NCBI GenBank assembly: GCA_016839785.1
Contig: JAEOTQ010000076.1
Location: forward strand, 1 to 37,881
Direction of reading: 5' to 3'
Source of the DNA: Candidatus Hodarchaeota archaeon
GTDB lineage: Archaea; Asgardarchaeota; Heimdallarchaeia; Hodarchaeales; Hodarchaeaceae
Length of the DNA stretch: 37,881 nucleotides
Both the position numbers and the translations under genes were made by a program. Shown piece after piece: positions 25,391 through 34,236 of this stretch (position 1 is the stretch's first letter; each line of letters begins with the position of its first letter). Under the pieces are notes generated by a model. It saw only the letters and a program-made list of their open reading frames with translations, was not told the origin of the DNA and made no database searches.

Positions 25391-25969
25391 TTGCAGATAG
25401 GAGCCTATAAGTTGTTATTGATGAAAGTTTGTCTATTAGGCGATGGTGCAGTCGGGAAAACAGCATTACGTGAACGTTATCTTGGGAAACAATTCTCGAG
25501 TGGTTATGTGATGACTATTGGCGCAGATTTTGCCGTTAAAAAGACTCAAATTTCCACTGAAGAAGGAAAAAAGAGTGTTAAGTTCCAAATTTGGGATTTA
25601 GCGGGTCAACCACGTTTTAACAGTGTTAGAGAATTATATTATAAGGGGTCGCATGGGGGTCTTCTAGTCTTTGATATCACTAGACGTGATTCCTTTACAA
25701 ATTTAACTTCCTGGATAGAAGAGCTTTATCGGAATTCAGGAAGAGGAATAATGCCAATAACCCTTTTAGGGAACAAAGTAGATCTTCGTAATGAGGTGGA
25801 AGACCCTGTTACACCAGATGAAGCCCAAGCTTATATTGAGGAAATTAAGGGTCAGTATGGTATAACTTTTGATGTTCCCTATCTTGAAACTTCTGCAAAA
25901 ACTGGTGAAAACGTTGATGAATCGTTTAATACTCTTGCTCATACGATTCGCAATTATCTAAGGAAATAA
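25391..25969 (+). CDS. Rab-like small GTPase (Ras superfamily)
   Basis: G1 GDGAVGKT, G2 TIGADF, G3 WDLAGQ, YYKG, G4 NKVD, G5 ETSAK. The real start may be a few codons downstream. Confidence 0.93.
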   Translation: MQIGAYKLLLMKVCLLGDGAVGKTALRERYLGKQFSSGYVMTIGADFAVKKTQISTEEGKKSVKFQIWDLAGQPRFNSVRELYYKGSHGGLLVFDITRRDSFTNLTSWIEELYRNSGRGIMPITLLGNKVDLRNEVEDPVTPDEAQAYIEEIKGQYGITFDVPYLETSAKTGENVDESFNTLAHTIRNYLRK

Positions 25970-26543: not shown

Positions 26544-27077
26544 GTGAGGATGATGCATAAGAATAAGCTACAGATAGGAGTAATTGGAGATTCAAAGATA
26601 CGCAATGATCTAGAATATGATATTGCCTATGAAATAGGTCAAGAAATTGCTCACTCTGATGCAATATTAATTTGTGGTGGAAGAGGAGGTGTAATGTCCG
26701 CAGCTATAAAAGGAGCATACGATGCTAATGGGATTTCTGTTGGAATTCTTCCTGCAGGAGTAGAAGATGAAGAAACATCTCCTTATCTAACAGTGAAAAT
26801 TCCTACCTATTTACAATGGGGACGGAATCCAATTATTGTCCTTGCAGCTGATGGTGTCATTGCTTTGGGTGGAAATGTGGGTACTCTTTCAGAATTATCA
26901 TATGCTGTCCTTTACAACCGACCGATCGTTTGTATCACAGCAATCGAAGGATGGAGCCAAGAAATCGGTGATCGGGGTTCGTTGCATAACCCACCTGTCC
27001 CAAACCAAATCTTATGTGCTGAAACAGGCTCAGAAGCTGTAAAAAAAATAAAAAACGCGATTTTATCCACCAAATAA
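26544..27077 (+). CDS. TIGR00725-type LOG/SLOG family Rossmann-fold nucleotide-binding protein
   Basis: IGVIG, CGGRGGVM, GILP, RN, GGNVGTLSE. Confidence 0.85.
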   Translation: MRMMHKNKLQIGVIGDSKIRNDLEYDIAYEIGQEIAHSDAILICGGRGGVMSAAIKGAYDANGISVGILPAGVEDEETSPYLTVKIPTYLQWGRNPIIVLAADGVIALGGNVGTLSELSYAVLYNRPIVCITAIEGWSQEIGDRGSLHNPPVPNQILCAETGSEAVKKIKNAILSTK

Positions 27078-27878
27078 TGAAAAAAGTCCCTTGTTCCCTT
27101 TTGGTTTCAAAAAATCGGAGACCCCATCACACAATCCTTTAAGTAATGAATCATGCTGAGCGTTTACAAGATCAGTATATTCTTCAATAATTGATGAATA
27201 TAGATCGTAATTTCCCGCTTCAACGGATTTGAAGAGGTGAGTAACTAATTCAATATATTCAGAGGTTTTTGGAAGAGATTTAGCCTCTTCTAGATACTTA
27301 CCACACCCCTCAATTTCATAAGCATTCAATTCCGCTAGTGTTAAATATGCTAACACACGTGGAGATGATGATGTTAATGTATTCCATTCCTTCAATACAT
27401 TAAAGCATTTTACATATTCCTGTTTAAACACTAAGAGTCCGGCATAATAATAGTGCAGATCTGCAATAATTTCCTTGGGATATTGCTTTCTGGTTATGGT
27501 TTCCATGATTGATTGTATAAAATCTTCTTGAGCAGATTTTGTTTCAAGAATCAGTTTATTAATAAACTTGGGAACGCATGAAGGCATATTATTTTCTCTT
27601 AACAATGCCAGTATATCGGGTATAAGCACAAACCATTCAATAATTCCAATTTTCTTTTTGAATAGAGGAATGGTACCTAAGATGAATTGACAATACAATT
27701 CCTCCATTTCTTTTGGAATTAGAATTTCATTGGTTCTCTTAAAGATCTGTAAAGCTTTGGTAGGTTGATTTAATCTAAATACCCGTCGTACAGCTCCTTC
27801 TATCAACTGCATACCATCGAAAATTTTCCCTGAGCTTAATGAAGTGAATCCTCTCTCAGTCCAATTGTCAATCTTCAT
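27063..27878 (-). CDS. Alpha-helical repeat protein, candidate Get4/TRC35-like (alternative: SNAP/TPR-like)
   Basis: All-helical 271-aa ORF. Segments GKIFDGMQ, DLHYYYAGLL and GLFSLFGG recall Get4. The CDS is well supported; the family is tentative. Confidence 0.6.
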   Translation of the reverse strand: MKIDNWTERGFTSLSSGKIFDGMQLIEGAVRRVFRLNQPTKALQIFKRTNEILIPKEMEELYCQFILGTIPLFKKKIGIIEWFVLIPDILALLRENNMPSCVPKFINKLILETKSAQEDFIQSIMETITRKQYPKEIIADLHYYYAGLLVFKQEYVKCFNVLKEWNTLTSSSPRVLAYLTLAELNAYEIEGCGKYLEEAKSLPKTSEYIELVTHLFKSVEAGNYDLYSSIIEEYTDLVNAQHDSLLKGLCDGVSDFLKPKGNKGLFSLFGG

Positions 27879-28099
27879 TTTTATGCGATTAAAGACAAGA
27901 CCTTAACTAAACAAAAAATATATCTAAAAATATAAGGTTGTTAAAAAGAAAGAAATTTATGAAAGAATTTTACATGCTTTATTGAGTCAATATATTAAGT
28001 GGATTTTAAAAAGCTGTATTGATATCCTCTAGATATAGAAAACCGCGAAAATCACCTAACTCTCATGATTTTGCACGTAAAACTGTGTGTTGATAACCT

Positions 28100-29041
28100 G
28101 TGAGCAACTCTGATCTTGTTAAAAAGTTTACAGTAAACGACGATGGAACTTTAACTCCATGTGATGTGTCATCTCTCGGAGGACTGAAAAATAATGCAGT
28201 TTATATTATTGTAGATGAAGGAGTAAGGAAAATTTTTATCTGGAAGGGTGAAGAGGCACCTGTACGAAGAAAATTCATTTCAGCTAAAGCTGCACAACAG
28301 ATGCGCCAAGAACAGTATGGAATGGTATATCGTATCGATAGTCTCGACCCTGGAATAGAGGGGAAGGATTTTCTTGCCATATTTGGAGAAATAGTACCAC
28401 AAACAGGAGCTTCGGATACAGATCAAGCTAGTACTGAAGTTATTTCACGTCCTAGATCTGCTCCTGCTCAAACTACGGTTTCAACCCCTCGTCCTGCACC
28501 ATCGGCAGCGCCAAAACCACGTCCAACTCCCGCTCCCTCTCAATCTCCAAGATCGGCCCCAAAACCATCGACTCCCTCACCACCTGCTCCGGTACCGACC
28601 GTTGTTTCCACACCTAAACCGAGTAGTGCACCGACGCCTTCACCTGTGTCAAAATCGAGAGTTGTGAAAGAAACCGAAGTTGTTGTTACACGCCAAGTAG
28701 ATGCTACACCCTCTACTCCTCTTAGTGTTGTCACTGACAAGCTAAAAGAATTAGACGTTCCATCTCATTTGGAAAGGGAAATTGTTATTATCGGAAATAC
28801 TGTATTTTCAGTCATAAAAGAACATTTACAACTTTTTTCAAAAGATGTCGTAAAGTTAGAGCCAATGGATGATTTACCTGCAGGAATATTCCCTGCTGCT
28901 CATTATGAGGTACGTCTATTTATTGAAGATGGCCAAATCCTCTTTATTGACATGTTGAGGGAAAAAACTCGCTCTGAACGAGACGAATTTATTGATGACA
29001 TGCGTCAATCGCTGCAAGATCTATCAAAAATGGGATTATAA
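28100..29041 (+). CDS. Gelsolin-like domain protein with a Pro/Ser/Thr-rich linker and a C-terminal domain
   Basis: VYIIVDEGVRKIFIWKGEEAPVRRKFISAKAA...DPGIEGKDFLAIF is a gelsolin-repeat signature, followed by about 100 aa of Pro-rich linker. Confidence 0.88.
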   Translation: MSNSDLVKKFTVNDDGTLTPCDVSSLGGLKNNAVYIIVDEGVRKIFIWKGEEAPVRRKFISAKAAQQMRQEQYGMVYRIDSLDPGIEGKDFLAIFGEIVPQTGASDTDQASTEVISRPRSAPAQTTVSTPRPAPSAAPKPRPTPAPSQSPRSAPKPSTPSPPAPVPTVVSTPKPSSAPTPSPVSKSRVVKETEVVVTRQVDATPSTPLSVVTDKLKELDVPSHLEREIVIIGNTVFSVIKEHLQLFSKDVVKLEPMDDLPAGIFPAAHYEVRLFIEDGQILFIDMLREKTRSERDEFIDDMRQSLQDLSKMGL

Positions 29042-29062
29042 TTAACGATTTGGGTTTTATCA

Positions 29063-29584
29063 ATGACAGGCAATAATGAATACTTACTCAAAATTTGTGC
29101 AATTGGATCTGGGAATGTGGGGAAGACTTCTCTGATTCGTCGATTTGCAGAAAATAAATTCGACACCAATTATTTACCTACATTAGGTGTTGACATCACG
29201 ACAAAAAAAATCGATCTTGATGAAATACAGGTCAAATTGATCTTAGTAGATACTGCGGGACAGGAGTTCTTTGGAAAATTAAGACCTAGCTACTATCGAG
29301 GAGCCTCTGCTTGCTTAATCATGTTTGCGCTAAATGATGAGAATTCTTTCACAGCTATCCCGAACTGGCGAAGTGAATTTCAAAAGTACATCCAACCCCC
29401 TGTACCAATTGCTTTAGCTGGGAATAAAAACGATCTGGTAGATGAAAGGGCAGTATCTGAAAAAGATGCTCGAAAGGTAGCTGATGAGCTAAATATGGCA
29501 TATTATGAAACCTCTGCAAAAGAGGGCGGTTCTGAAATCGAAGAAATTTTCCAAAGCTTAGCAAAACAAGTTATATCAAAATAA
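29063..29584 (+). CDS. Rab-like small GTPase
   Basis: GSGNVGKT, YLPTLGVD, DTAGQE, YYRGA, NKND, ETSAK. Confidence 0.93.
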   Translation: MTGNNEYLLKICAIGSGNVGKTSLIRRFAENKFDTNYLPTLGVDITTKKIDLDEIQVKLILVDTAGQEFFGKLRPSYYRGASACLIMFALNDENSFTAIPNWRSEFQKYIQPPVPIALAGNKNDLVDERAVSEKDARKVADELNMAYYETSAKEGGSEIEEIFQSLAKQVISK

Positions 29585-29631
29585 TTTGAAAAAAATCTTT
29601 TGCATACATTATCATCTCTATTAATTACAAG

Positions 29632-30393
29632 GTGTTCACCATGCAGGCACAACCCTCCTTTGAAACAATAAAAAGAGATCATCAAGGCGTCCCTGTAGTT
29701 AAAATAGTCTTTTGGGGGCCCACTTTAGCAGGGAAAACTACAGCATTAACGATAACCAAAGTTCTAAAGAGCCTTGAAGATCCAGAAAATGTCTATAAAT
29801 TCTTAAAATTAGAAGATCCAACAGGACGCACTCTTTTCTTTGATCAGGGTATCTTTGGAATTGGTAAAACGAGTGCAGGGTTACCTATTTTAAAATATCA
29901 CTTATTTACTGTTCCTGGTCAGGAGCGTCACTCTGGGCAGAGGAAAGTTGTCCTAAGAGGAGCCCACGGATTAATTTGTGTTGTTGACTCTGAGAAATCT
30001 CGATGGGAGGAGAATAAATTTGCACTTCGGGAAATTAATGATCTTGCTGGAGATAAACTAGCAAATGGTTCACTACCATATCACATTATGCTTAACAAAA
30101 TGGATCTCCCTGCTGAACAACGGATTAACTCCTTTGAGGTAGGAAAATTGTTAAGCGAATCTGGTGCCGTTGCTAGCTTAAGAGATGCAGCAGTCAGAAT
30201 CATTGAAGTTTCGTGTCTCGCTGCTCGTGATGATTTGAAACTACTACTTTCTAGGAGTGATCGAAGCAAGATAGTTAATGAAGACGGCAGGTTGAAAAAA
30301 GAGTACCGTCCTACAAGCGTAAATCGTGTGATAAAACCTGTTGAAAGTCTTGTAAGAGAAATCATTATCCATATGATGAAACAACAACAGTAA
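29632..30393 (+). CDS. MglA-family small GTPase
   Basis: KIVFWGPTLAGKTT, GRTLFFD, G3 variant TVPGQ, RKVVLRGAHG..VVDS and NKMD are MglA hallmarks. Confidence 0.88.
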   Translation: MFTMQAQPSFETIKRDHQGVPVVKIVFWGPTLAGKTTALTITKVLKSLEDPENVYKFLKLEDPTGRTLFFDQGIFGIGKTSAGLPILKYHLFTVPGQERHSGQRKVVLRGAHGLICVVDSEKSRWEENKFALREINDLAGDKLANGSLPYHIMLNKMDLPAEQRINSFEVGKLLSESGAVASLRDAAVRIIEVSCLAARDDLKLLLSRSDRSKIVNEDGRLKKEYRPTSVNRVIKPVESLVREIIIHMMKQQQ

Positions 30394-30467
30394 CTTAAAG
30401 AAAGCCCCCTAGATTCTTGGAGGACATATAAAATACCTCATATTTACAATTTAAGAGAGAATATCTC

Positions 30468-31097
30468 TTGACAGTCCTTAATGCCAGTGATCCTGAAATA
30501 ATAGATAAATCAGCTGCATTATTGAGGAGAGGAGCTGTTGCAGTGTTTCCTACTGATACTGTTTACGGACTAGGAACTATAGTAACAAAAGAAAATAATA
30601 AAAATATACGTAAAATCTTTGAGATTAAGAAAAGGTCTTTAAAAAAGCCTCTAAGTATTTTAATGACTTTAGAAATGATTTCTGAATATATTGATGCTTC
30701 TGACATTGTCATCACCGGCCTGAAAGAGCTTTGGCCTGCATCAATCACATTTATTGTAAACTTGAAACATTCTTGTCTGAAAAAATTATCTCCTTACTTA
30801 AACACTTCTGGAAATAATACAATTGCATGTCGTGTGCCACCACATGATATTCTGTTAAGAATTATTGAAAATATTGGGATCCCAGTAATTGGTACTTCAG
30901 CAAATATCTCAGGTTATAAACCTAGTTTTGTTTTTGCCAATGTATTTAATGATTTATCATCTAAGGGTATAGATCTTTGGATTGATCAAGGAACTTTGCC
31001 AATAAAATCACCTTCTACAATCATCGATATTACCTCCCCTAATGAACCAAAACTCTTACGACAAGGTGATTATAAATTTACTACTTTTAGATCATGA
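30468..31097 (+). CDS. tsaC: L-threonylcarbamoyladenylate synthase, short TsaC/YrdC form
   Basis: FPTDTVYGL, KKR..KPL, TSANISG, PSTIID, LLRQG. No Sua5 C-terminal domain. Confidence 0.9.
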   Translation: MTVLNASDPEIIDKSAALLRRGAVAVFPTDTVYGLGTIVTKENNKNIRKIFEIKKRSLKKPLSILMTLEMISEYIDASDIVITGLKELWPASITFIVNLKHSCLKKLSPYLNTSGNNTIACRVPPHDILLRIIENIGIPVIGTSANISGYKPSFVFANVFNDLSSKGIDLWIDQGTLPIKSPSTIIDITSPNEPKLLRQGDYKFTTFRS

Positions 31098-31139
31098 AAC
31101 CTTAATAAGCTAACTTATAGATTATCCCAATGAATTACG

Positions 31140-32978
31140 ATGGATACACAAATGGATTCTACTGATCTCCTTGTCGTTCACCAAAATAGAGTAATTTTCA
31201 GCTCAGGTAAAGGTCTTTTGTCTCAACACTCAAAAATTAGTGCAACTGTTACGCAAGTTCTCACTCTTTTTTCGCAGAAGATTATGGGAGGCGAAAGAAT
31301 TCACTTCATTAGATTTGCTAATCATCGTATGATATTTTTATTTCCCCACGTAAGAAGAACTGATGATCTTGTGGCAATCGTTTTGATCCCTATCGCGAAG
31401 AATGCTCGTCAAGTAGTTCCTACCATGGGAATTGTCTTAAACTTAATAGAGCAATTTCTTTCAGGAGATGTTTTAGATGCCCAAAATAGGCATTTAGATA
31501 CTTTTTATCAGCTTTTAACCTCTCCTGCAGATTCTATCTATGTCATACCACGAACTGGGGAGGGAATGTTATCTGCTTTGGTATTACTTACAGCATTTGC
31601 TCATGATCTTAGATACGGAGTTGAGAGTGTAGTATCAAGGTTGGTGTTCATCGACCCGAATGATACAAGCGACCTTCTATCCGTTATTGAAACTTCCAAG
31701 ACTTCACGAGTTCTATCTTTCACGCCAATTCCTGGGGTCGAGGAAAATGATAATATACTGATCTTTGGTTTGGAATCACCTCTCAAGCAATATTTTTCTG
31801 CAAATCCAGGAGAGCAGGTATATGATGTTCTTAGTAGGATTTTTGGCGCAAATTCAAATACTGCAAAGATGAGAAAGTTCATTGACAATAATGATGCCCG
31901 AGAGATAGCCCAATCCATGGCACTGTTTCCTTCTAGTGAAGATAATTTTATCAGAAGCAATGTATTATTATCAACCGTTATACAACCTGGAAAAGACATT
32001 GTGGTGACAATGTCAGCTCCAGTTATGCATAAAATGCGAGAGCTAGCACCTCCACCACGAGGGGTAGAGCCTACAGAACTCCCCGAACTACAGGAACTAG
32101 TGGTGGAAAAAGATGAGTTACAGACACCATCCTCGACAGGTTTCACCCCTCCAGTGGAAGAAACTGTCATAAAACCTAGCATTGAACTTAATGCGGAACC
32201 TGATGCTATACCGACGAAACAACCAGTAGTTGAACCAGTTATTAAGCGTTCCATCACTCATGAGGCTATAAGTCCCGAAATTACGTCCCAATTACAGAAA
32301 ACCAGAGAGAGTGGATTACAGTATAATTTCGCTGATATCCCAGTTGTTCTGGATACCTCACCCATGACCCTTGATCTCGCACCAAATAATGTTGTACCAT
32401 CTAGTAAATCAAATATTACGGTCAGCTTATTCCACAAACTTAATCAGTTTGAATGTCATATTTCTACATATGGACCAAGACTCGAAAGCATTAAAGACTC
32501 GTTAAAGGACTTAGCTTCAAAGCTTGAAGGAACTTTAGAACTAGGCCATGATTCAGTTTCATTAAAAGTTTCGCATGAACGCGATAAAATTGCTCTACGT
32601 GGAATACTGTGGTTAAGCATTGTTGAATATCTTACTCAAGTAGAAGGGAATATTAAAACTCTATCTTCAAGATTTAACATACCTAGAGAGGGGTCAATTT
32701 TAATCATCCCTCCCAATCGTGACTTTGTTAAAGAGAAGATACCATCAAAATTTAAAACTTTCATTTATGAAAAAGAGATTCGTGAACAGATTGAAACGGA
32801 AGCATTATGGACTCTGGGCAAAGCACACGATGCAATCCTTTCTATGATAATGCAACCACTATATCAGGGTGAAGGAGTTGCGTTTGTTGCCTCAGAATCA
32901 AATCAAGAAATGGAGGAAATAGCTTTATTCTTGTTACTTATATCTGAAATCTGCGGAATCGGTTTTTCACGTTGGTAA
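31140..32978 (+). CDS. Hypothetical protein with a longin-like N-terminus, possibly DENN-like, and a Pro/Glu linker
   Basis: LLVVHQNRVIFS...VTQVLTLFSQKIMGGERIHFIRFANHRMIFL...LVAIVL fits the longin beta-beta-alpha-beta-beta-beta-alpha pattern. The CDS is solid; the domain call is tentative. Confidence 0.65.
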   Translation: MDTQMDSTDLLVVHQNRVIFSSGKGLLSQHSKISATVTQVLTLFSQKIMGGERIHFIRFANHRMIFLFPHVRRTDDLVAIVLIPIAKNARQVVPTMGIVLNLIEQFLSGDVLDAQNRHLDTFYQLLTSPADSIYVIPRTGEGMLSALVLLTAFAHDLRYGVESVVSRLVFIDPNDTSDLLSVIETSKTSRVLSFTPIPGVEENDNILIFGLESPLKQYFSANPGEQVYDVLSRIFGANSNTAKMRKFIDNNDAREIAQSMALFPSSEDNFIRSNVLLSTVIQPGKDIVVTMSAPVMHKMRELAPPPRGVEPTELPELQELVVEKDELQTPSSTGFTPPVEETVIKPSIELNAEPDAIPTKQPVVEPVIKRSITHEAISPEITSQLQKTRESGLQYNFADIPVVLDTSPMTLDLAPNNVVPSSKSNITVSLFHKLNQFECHISTYGPRLESIKDSLKDLASKLEGTLELGHDSVSLKVSHERDKIALRGILWLSIVEYLTQVEGNIKTLSSRFNIPREGSILIIPPNRDFVKEKIPSKFKTFIYEKEIREQIETEALWTLGKAHDAILSMIMQPLYQGEGVAFVASESNQEMEEIALFLLLISEICGIGFSRW

Positions 32979-32990
32979 GACAAGACTAGA

Positions 32991-33109
32991 GGAGCTTTTC
33001 AATAGAGACTGCTAATGTATCGGTCAGCAGAGGCCTTCCCGTTGCGATGAAGCTGATTACCGTCCGGCTTAGCAGAAAAGCGTTACGCTGATACCTTTAT
33101 TGAAGTTCC
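32991..33109 (+). ncRNA. Structured RNA with a K-turn/K-loop; candidate H/ACA pseudouridylation guide
   Basis: GC-richer island. Outer stem 32991-33007/33095-33109. CTGCTAA 33009-33015 pairs with TTAGCAG 33069-33075. Upper stem GGTCAGC/GCTGATTACC. K-turn AGA (33029-33031)/GATGA (33046-33050). AAA at 33076. Confidence 0.55.
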
Positions 33110-33372: not shown

Positions 33373-34236
33373 ATGAAGAATTGGCTTATTACAAAAAGAA
33401 CAAAAAGAGGGATAAGCCCTGTAATCGCCACGGTTTTATTAATTGGACTTGTTGTAGTAGCTGGATTAGGAGTAGCGTTAGTGATGTTTGGTACCATTAA
33501 TACTCCCGATCCATTAGGGGTTGAAGTTGTGGCCATATCTTCTTTCGAAACCACTGATATTGATATTAATGTTGACAAATTTGATGTAACCCTCCAGAAT
33601 ACCGAAAGAACAAATGTTGAAATTTCTTCGGATGCATTTTCACTCCTTTATTTCAATCGTACGCCAATTCTAGGATGGTATATGGATCAATCAAAGATTT
33701 TTTTATCAGGTTTATCCATAGTAACGATTCCTCTTACTTGTGATAATACAGTCGATCGAAATGAACTAGTACCTGGGAATGATACTATTTACATTGATGT
33801 AACTATTTTTCCAGAAGGTAAGACAAGCCCAAAGTCTGCAAGAACATTCCGATCTAATATATTGACTATTGGAGATACCTATGGTCCAGTTTCCCTCGTT
33901 TCATTGAATCCATTATCGACTTTCAGTCAAGAAGGATTCACAATGAACTTTACTGTTACAAACAATGGAAGTACGGATCTTAATTTACGTTTAGATTTTT
34001 CAACAGCTTCTTCAAGTGGATTATTCTTCATTGTGAACGGTATTAACACTAGCTTGCATGTTTTCATACTGGAAAAGCTAGAATCAACTTCCTTTCAAAG
34101 TGATCTTTTCCAATTAAATTCCTCTGACCTGACAAGCCCTGGAGTACCTTATTTGATTTTTGTTACATTGTCTGATAATGATAATGGAAACTTCCTTGCA
34201 ATAGAAAGTCTATCGGTGACATATGAACCGATCTAA
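33373..34236 (+). CDS. Archaeal type IV pilin-like protein (class III signal peptide)
   Basis: RTKRG|ISPVIATVLLIGLVVVAG followed by beta-rich domains with N-glycosylation sequons. Confidence 0.88.
   Translation: MKNWLITKRTKRGISPVIATVLLIGLVVVAGLGVALVMFGTINTPDPLGVEVVAISSFETTDIDINVDKFDVTLQNTERTNVEISSDAFSLLYFNRTPILGWYMDQSKIFLSGLSIVTIPLTCDNTVDRNELVPGNDTIYIDVTIFPEGKTSPKSARTFRSNILTIGDTYGPVSLVSLNPLSTFSQEGFTMNFTVTNNGSTDLNLRLDFSTASSSGLFFIVNGINTSLHVFILEKLESTSFQSDLFQLNSSDLTSPGVPYLIFVTLSDNDNGNFLAIESLSVTYEPI

Follow-up and report, generated by a model that had tools for sequence, protein, structure and literature searches.

We examined a cluster of co-oriented genes in a genome of Candidatus Hodarchaeota archaeon, in which a gene for a gelsolin-family protein of the type called GelX is followed directly by genes for a Rab-like and an MglA-like small GTPase. 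The window, by which we mean the whole stretch of DNA analysed (37,881 nucleotides; contig JAEOTQ010000076.1 of assembly GCA_016839785.1), is one entire contig, C27, of a 4.04-Mb genome that is 84.5% complete. Across Asgard archaea, GelX genes keep a gene of the GTPase system directly behind them. On balance we take the trio at 28100-30393 to be GelX with two GTPase switches, with GelX as a regulator of actin that is linked to a small-GTPase switch; this is a reading of gene context, and we hold it as probable by a modest degree. The genome comes from the Asgard group closest to eukaryotes, and the trio offers a testable lead on archaeal actin control.

A sequence-only reading of this DNA had proposed an operon coupling both GTPases to an actin regulator, together with a longin/DENN-like gene one gene further on. 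Comparative context supports the tie between the gelsolin family and small GTPases (43 of 59 loci; a single Rab clade), whereas the DENN part, assigned to a 612-aa protein, is not supported. The positions and common orientation given at that time for the open reading frames (ORFs) are correct: five plus-strand ORFs (28100-29041, 29063-29584, 29632-30393, 30468-31097 and 31140-32978) fill 28100-32978 with successive gaps of 21, 47, 74 and 42 bp, and the ORF coordinates confirm the first two gaps as those within the trio. The three genes are:

28100..29041, plus strand: GelX (1DGelX-type by its architecture), 313 aa; gelsolin-fold domain, disordered linker, X domain
29063..29584, plus strand: Rab-like small GTPase, 173 aa, 21 bp 3' of the gelsolin gene; Pfam Ras 1e-50
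29632..30393, plus strand: MglA-type GTPase, 253 aa, 47 bp 3' of the Rab-like gene; conserved C-terminal extension of ~55 residues

GTPase-system genes behind GelX in Asgard archaea

The position test covered 60 loci selected solely by a match to the X domain, 59 of which have a gene at +1, the place directly after GelX. ORFs outside the window were called crudely, and their labels come from hidden Markov models (HMMs) built on alignments made here. The loci are related by kinship, and family codes are given instead of a p-value. The +1 gene encodes a Roadblock protein in 33 of the 59 loci (32 called, plus L113, found on re-checking 18 blanks), spread over eight family codes (f6, f11, f18, f19, f20, f26, f27 and f31), and a Rab-like GTPase in 10 of the 59, from f2, f4 and f7; the window's own f1 likewise has a Rab-like gene at +1. 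Either kind of gene is thus found at +1 in 43 of the 59 loci, from 11 family codes, compared with 13 of 508 at the eleven other positions scored (-6 to -1 and +2 to +6). As background, small GTPases number in the dozens in Asgard genomes, and the window's genome has 57 small GTPase genes and 14 Roadblock genes, or 71 among 3911 crude ORFs. Thirty of the 32 called Roadblock genes lie downstream of GelX in the same orientation; the Roadblock neighbours resemble Roadblock/LC7 proteins of known structure and, weakly, MglB. The remaining flanks vary by family and include thermosome, phosphodiesterase, VWA/copine-like protein, phosphoglucomutase (PGM), IF-2 and topoisomerase genes. That GelX is directly followed by a gene of the GTPase system stands as a statement about the family.

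The Rab-like neighbours are related to one another. A FastTree tree of 52 Rab-like proteins, in which the supports are local ones and not bootstraps, places all 16 gelsolin-adjacent Rabs (f1, f2, f4 and f7) in one clade with three paralogues from the window's genome and one f9 Rab. Local support for this clade is 0.957, falling to 0.821 with the clade intact once four Rab-peptidase fusion proteins are added. The clade, given as 19 members, leaves out 29 other Rab-like proteins of this genome. A Rab-like subfamily accompanies GelX in Heimdallarchaeia. Two types of GelX occur in that class, and in the best tree the Hodarchaeales genes group with the Rab-paired 'type B', at a support of only 81/0.

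Closer to the window, 26 related loci were fetched with a GelX alignment, and 20 of these reach far enough downstream to be informative; three that end inside the gelsolin gene and three with a more distant GelX were excluded. The gelsolin, Rab-like and MglA-like genes are consecutive in all 20. Most of these loci seem to come from a single genus (the 21 genomes whose X-domain matches are strongest were coded 'same genus'), and within it a block of twelve genes is kept: Ras-like, Trm56, SLOG, a 271-aa gene, gelsolin, Rab-like, MglA-like, TsaC, the 612-aa gene, pilin-like, Dph6 and NadC. Gene order inside the genus says little, because the housekeeping genes of this block are as well conserved as the trio. 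Synteny had been named as a check on the operon proposal; it holds in 20 of 20 loci, L021 included, but the within-genus part of that result is uninformative since the whole block is kept. More telling are two loci outside the genus. L021, with identities of 36% for the gelsolin protein, 42% for the Rab and 67% for the MglA, retains the trio while all other neighbours differ, and has a Roadblock/MAPKK1_Int gene (PF08923, 4e-8) directly 5' of GelX. L074 keeps the gelsolin-Rab pair. An MglA-type gene next to this pair is confined to two genera, the window's own and one other.

Other genes recur near GelX in some families. In L103, L114 and L128 (f19/f20), the gene directly after the GelX-adjacent Roadblock gene is co-oriented and encodes ~690-720 aa with a VWA/copine-like domain at the C-terminus (VWA 1e-8 to 1e-9). 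A protein of similar size occupies this place in other f19/f20 loci and may be an additional cassette member in f19/f20. Proteins of 557-612 aa with an N-terminal Rab-like GTPase domain are encoded two genes 5' of GelX in L107-L110 (f26, f27) and at 5424-7262 in L029. The remainder of the L029 fusion matches an M20 peptidase (Pfam Peptidase_M20 6e-18), and the f27 protein from L109 has matches of GTPase type only. In f26, a 281-aa protein whose C-terminal part is a GTPase domain is encoded 5' of the fusion genes; its Pfam matches are to GTPases only, and its N-terminal half appears longin-like by eye only.

The proteins of the trio

The first gene had been read as encoding a gelsolin domain, and this proved correct. 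The gelsolin-fold domain spans residues ~6-96 (28115-28387) and is followed by a Pro/Thr/Ser-rich linker (residues ~100-201), variable in the alignment, and by a conserved X domain at residues ~203-313 (28706-29038). An AlphaFold2 model from a 53-row alignment has a mean predicted local distance difference test score (pLDDT) of 71; its N-terminal domain is confident, 100-201 is disordered, and the X domain is modelled as a helix, five strands and a helix at pLDDT 85-89. The N-terminal domain has the mixed sheet packed on a long helix of the gelsolin/cofilin fold, together with sequence likeness to solved gelsolins. The window protein itself scores below the Pfam PF00626 gathering threshold and matches no Pfam family at E<=0.01; its L021 ortholog passes PF00626 (23 bits vs 21), as do several distant relatives. 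By shared architecture and phylum-wide spread, the window gene is of the GelX/1DGelX type.

The X domain is nearly always C-terminal in proteins of 250-320 aa, and in a search of 400 Asgard genomes it was matched in 351 (88 of the 90 high-quality ones), with the matching frames nearly always 250-330 aa long. An exhaustive profile search recovered only 244 representatives among 1.84 billion proteins. Twelve X-domain proteins were of odd length. Eight of these have any Pfam match, in every case to Gelsolin, of which two carry a further domain and one coiled coils; the other four have no match. A 'Rosetta stone' fusion of X to a GTPase or Roadblock domain was found in none of the twelve (0/12). 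The X-domain profile found nothing below E 0.7 among PDB sequences, and an ESM Atlas search gave best scores of 0.80-0.81, all to archaeal clusters without a name, and hence no lead. No eukaryotic counterpart of X was found in the ESM Atlas, PDB sequence and exhaustive profile searches.

Rare variants of the family also exist. In one of the two proteins P0411 and P0430, the X domain precedes the gelsolin domain, and in the other, gelsolin and X are followed by ~200 residues matching coiled-coil families. The window's genome has another gelsolin-domain gene, encoding 248 aa without an X domain, on the minus strand of contig C140 (locus L002, 1354-2100). In place of X it has a Lys/Thr-rich linker and a zinc-ribbon-like C-terminal end (CxxC...CxxC).

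The Rab-like identity of the second gene product was likewise confirmed. Its G domain, the source of the Pfam Ras match, is closest to Rab/Ypt: the best 60 of 795 PDB matches at E<=1e-10 are almost all Rab/Ypt proteins, with Rab22A on top (3e-37) and Rab21, Rab23, Rab5 and Rab1 also among the top matches listed. A reading of the sequence finds no C-terminal prenylation cysteine, the protein ending in ...LAKQVISK.

The third protein matches Myxococcus xanthus MglA (6hjh) at E 1.1e-18. In the PDB only MglA chains fall below E 1e-16, the next best match of the MglA-like protein being at 0.02. MglA residues Arg53, Thr78 and Gln82 correspond to R66, T93 and Q97 of the window protein (in RTLFFD and TVPGQ), and all three are invariant in 45 aligned relatives. 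The MglA-like label is therefore sound: the TxxGQ G3 motif with Thr for Asp, the switch I Arg and the catalytic Gln are all present. Identity across the genus is 81-96% for this protein where it is 56-85% for GelX, and the MglA-type GTPase is unusually constrained. No cognate Roadblock (MglB) gene lies beside it in the window. A predicted complex of the X domain with this GTPase, modelled with GTP and Mg, scored 0.01 against a mark of 0.32; it was run without controls and counts neither way.

Elsewhere in the genome, contig C116 (27573-29657) carries a more canonical cluster consisting of a Roadblock gene (144 aa), a 91-aa ORF, a gene for an MglA-like GTPase (193 aa; E 2.5e-42 against the MglA HMM built here) and a second Roadblock gene (164 aa). 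Contig C227 carries a paralogue that is closer to the window's MglA-like gene.

Proposed mechanism, known systems and competing readings

If the trio works as we propose, GelX would act on actin in the way described in vitro for its Thorarchaeota relative, and the nucleotide state of a neighbouring GTPase would set its activity or its location in the cell. The GTPase might bind the X domain or the gelsolin domain directly, or a Roadblock platform might mediate the coupling, and in Hodarchaeales the Rab-like and MglA-like pair would take the place that a Roadblock gene has elsewhere. The outcome would be a polarity-type switch that controls the severing and nucleation of actin and could plausibly serve the protrusions and crawling of Asgard archaea in culture (PMC13716822). 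Available portions of the same source describe actin as the driver of these protrusions and of crawling, and name gelsolins and profilins as likely regulators. Should this coupling prove real, the control of actin dynamics by GTPases would predate eukaryotes.

A wider version of this proposal is tentative, and we consider it rather unlikely to hold in full. It would make the gene pair an ancestral, phylum-wide and pre-eukaryotic cassette, in which a Roadblock-regulated GTPase or a dedicated Rab directly controls a severing and nucleating protein via the X domain; Hodarchaeales would then have added an MglA-type polarity GTPase, wiring polarity to actin turnover as in crawling eukaryotic cells.

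The gelsolin protein itself is of a known type. Akil et al. (2020; PMC7444086) reported that Thorarchaeota 1DGelX binds rabbit actin with a Kd of 7.7 uM and that it nucleates and severs independently of calcium, leaving the X domain without a function in the text available. That protein and B35_GelX of L. ossiferum (bioRxiv 10.1101/2025.11.30.690169; PMC13716822) share with the window protein a single gelsolin domain joined by a long linker to a C-terminal X, an architecture found across Asgard lineages both in what is available of those papers and here. Domain X is modelled there as a low-confidence coiled coil, unlike the confident mixed fold obtained here. In their available text, these papers treat the protein alone, without mention of a neighbouring Roadblock, Rab or MglA gene; the terms 'GTPase' and 'operon' have 0 occurrences in that of PMC7444086, as have 'roadblock' and 'neighbour' in that of bioRxiv 10.1101/2025.11.30.690169. 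More broadly, a pairing of GelX with Roadblock, Rab-like or MglA-like genes was not found stated in the accessible portions of the literature on Asgard gelsolins and GTPases (PMC7444086, PMC10933270, PMC13716822, PMC11914678, PMC12962969, bioRxiv 10.1101/2020.10.19.343400 and 10.1101/2025.11.30.690169). The suggestion that no such system had been described thus applies to the gene pairing alone, which appears new; it does not extend to the gelsolin, already known as GelX/1DGelX (PMC7444086).

Two GTPase systems invite comparison. Liu et al. (bioRxiv 10.1101/2020.10.19.343400) described a conserved Asgard operon of a LAMTOR1-like Roadblock protein, a Rab-like GTPase and a DENN protein, for which a role in regulating GTPases was proposed; like the loci here, it joins Roadblock-superfamily and Rab-like genes. 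The part of that report available names no gelsolin, and no DENN domain was detected here; it is possible that its Roadblock or Rab families overlap with ours. The MglA-MglB switch of Myxococcus xanthus and Thermus thermophilus (6hjh, 6h5b, 3t12) shares the MglA hallmarks (the Thr of TVPGQ, the Arg of RTLFFD and the Gln) with the window protein, and the Roadblock fold of MglB is that of the usual GelX companion in most Asgard archaea. In contrast to MglA (~195 aa), the window GTPase has 253 aa, a conserved C-terminal extension and no adjacent Roadblock gene. Unlike the MglA-MglB pair, it has partner genes that encode a true gelsolin and a Rab-like GTPase, and its host is an archaeon whose actin is of the eukaryote type.

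In gliding motility, MglA-GTP has been reported to act on the actin-like protein MreB. In eukaryotes, Rho-family GTPases control actin-severing and capping proteins through the gelsolin and cofilin pathways. The logic would be the same here, with a nucleotide switch setting the place and time of filament cutting or capping; unlike the eukaryotic case, no Rho-family GTPase is involved, and the coupling is deduced from gene order alone.

Several points weigh against a GelX coupled to GTPases. All of the support for coupling is gene context, and actin severing by the window protein is carried over from a Thorarchaeota relative matched by architecture alone. Sixteen of the 59 loci have no Roadblock or Rab-like gene at +1 (seven f4 'type A', two f6, one f9, three f13 and three f21), with an orthologous Roadblock gene 5.5-6 kb away in four of the f4 'type A' loci. 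At L074 the MglA gene is absent from +2. The own-genome ortholog of the GelX-adjacent Roadblock gene (E 1.8e-41) is on contig C69, beside ribosomal protein S26e and a PfkB kinase, and an alternative tree grouping the Hodarchaeales genes with 'type A' is not rejected (p-AU 0.38); the Hodarchaeales gene may or may not be the ortholog of the Roadblock-paired GelX. At the level of sequence profiles the X domain has no likeness to the GelX-adjacent Roadblock (hhalign probability 0.3%). The RNA-library contigs discussed below are from a metatranscriptome, where DNA carry-over is possible, and a contig spanning two genes is no proof of a single transcript. Finally, the whole block is conserved within the genus, its upstream part in 18 of the 19 loci with upstream sequence, and a housekeeping gene for NAD(P)HX repair (YjeF_N + Carb_kinase) stands beside GelX in all 6 of the loci scanned for this neighbour, from four other family codes; because such a gene also adjoins GelX, conserved adjacency need not mean shared function.

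The first competing reading extends the module to the end of the five-gene run. The features that adjoin the trio are:

27879..28099, no strand assigned: divergent intergenic region of 221 bp, 27% GC and AT-rich, between the 271-aa minus-strand gene and the gelsolin gene; several TATA-like runs
30468..31097, plus strand: TsaC/Sua5 (L-threonylcarbamoyladenylate synthase), 209 aa; housekeeping tRNA-modification enzyme
31140..32978, plus strand: 612-aa multidomain protein of Hodarchaeales, without a Pfam or NCBIfam family

On this account GelX, the Rab-like and MglA-like GTPases and the 612-aa protein act together, and the MglB-like N-domain of the latter is a platform, as a GTPase-activating protein or guanine nucleotide exchange factor, for the MglA-like GTPase. 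We regard this as doubtful. The 612-aa model (pLDDT 77.6) comprises an N-domain (~6-110), a DHH-like region (~112-300), a disordered stretch (308-373), a DHHA1-like region (~378-500) and a Rossmann-like C-domain (517-612) ending in an invariant GxGFSRW. By fold, its N-domain appears Roadblock/MglB-like; the protein could in this way be a regulator of the MglA-like GTPase, a weak link drawn from the model. Its structure matches are to DHH/DHHA1. The catalytic motifs of DHH/DHHA1 phosphoesterases such as RecJ, Cdc45 and NrnA are DHH and GGGH, and neither string occurs in its sequence (a test of the motif by string only). The HMM of the N-domain matched no gene in 60 foreign loci. The gene does lie one gene beyond the trio, as had been observed, with TsaC/Sua5 between them; in L021 a subtilase gene stands before its homologue, and TsaC/Sua5 is not found at this place there. 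A pilin-like gene (33373-34236, plus strand), next after the 612-aa gene in the window, also lies 3' of the homologue in the divergent L021 (16843-17694), and because this adjacency recurs, the 612-aa protein may belong with the pilin-like gene rather than with the GTPases. Its membership of the module is doubtful.

The same gene had been described as longin/DENN-like. The DENN half of that label is not supported: none of 46 family members matches any DENN-type Pfam model at E<=5 (0/46), and the structure matches are of DHH/DHHA1 type. No DENN structure appears in the structure-match lists, which were obtained with the 612-residue model and in which single domains can be missed.

Next, the trio might be no more than an inherited gene order, part of a slowly rearranging block whose members are merely co-located without functional coupling. 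In its favour, Trm56, TsaC, Dph6 and NadC are as conserved within the genus as the trio, and the YjeF-type neighbour would agree with it. So would the statement of Tran et al. (PMC10933270), in the text available, that the small GTPase genes of Prometheoarchaeum MK-D1 do not as a rule share operons with Roadblock or longin genes; that text also calls it difficult to match Asgard small GTPases to regulators or targets from genome layout. Against it stands an enrichment specific to position and family type (43/59 at +1 vs 13/508 elsewhere), which persists while the thermosome, phosphodiesterase, VWA protein, PGM and IF-2 flanks change. It also counts against this reading that the adjacent Rabs fall in one clade across four family codes, and that L021 retains the trio although its surroundings all differ. 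We judge it improbable.

Last, the gelsolin domain might serve the GTPase and not actin, making GelX a GTPase-regulating or membrane-traffic factor in the manner of the Sec23/Sec24 gelsolin-like domain that contacts Sar1, which we think very unlikely.

A GelX wired to GTPase switches thus remains the reading we prefer. The phylum-wide tie of gelsolin to a Roadblock or Rab-like gene names a matched protein pair to express and test, and the trio is open to experiment because a Hodarchaeales strain is reported in pure culture in the part of PMC13716822 available.

Transcripts and flanking features

From its sequence, the intergenic region at 27879..28099 is the likely promoter region of the cluster. 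The 21-bp (gelsolin/Rab) and 47-bp (Rab/MglA) spacers contain no run of at least five T. A TATA-like ATATAAAATA can be read in the 74-bp spacer 5' of the TsaC/Sua5 gene. TsaC/Sua5 is probably outside the module though inside the co-oriented run, and together with the pilin-like gene it is most likely a bystander. The spacer 3' of the 612-aa gene is 394 bp long.

Co-transcription had been named as another check. One metatranscriptome run yielded contigs that partly cover the gelsolin, Rab-like and 612-aa genes, and a 192-nt contig from this RNA library (29507-29698, 2 differences) bridges the Rab/MglA junction, the two sides accounting for 78 and 67 nt. This contig is a weak hint of co-transcription, but it does not prove one transcript. 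The contigs leave 29857-31913 uncovered, and such a gap in contigs proves nothing.

A locally GC-rich stretch at 32995-33105, within the spacer after the 612-aa gene, is covered by an RNA-library contig at a depth of 41.8, compared with 3-11 over the genes, with differences at 33046 and 33059. Its folding is no better than that of shuffles (z -1.1 and -1.3), it matches no Rfam family or tRNA, and Rfam and tRNA scans of the whole window gave 0 matches each. The stretch could be an unannotated small RNA or the transcript of another organism.

Upstream, the conserved 271-aa gene (27063-27878, minus strand) is divergent from the gelsolin gene; five of its orthologs have no Pfam match below E 0.05. 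A second Ras/Rab-like GTPase gene (25391-25969, plus strand; 192 aa, Pfam Ras 1.3e-45) lies 2.1 kb 5' of the gelsolin gene and is followed by Trm56 and then by a SLOG/TIGR00725 gene. It is kept at this place in 18 of the 19 related loci with upstream sequence, and its product falls in a Rab clade other than that of the gelsolin-adjacent Rab. None of the ORFs annotated around the cluster is a che gene. At the other end of the run, the product of the pilin-like gene has an archaeal type IV pilin N-terminal domain (TIGR02537 4.5e-6).

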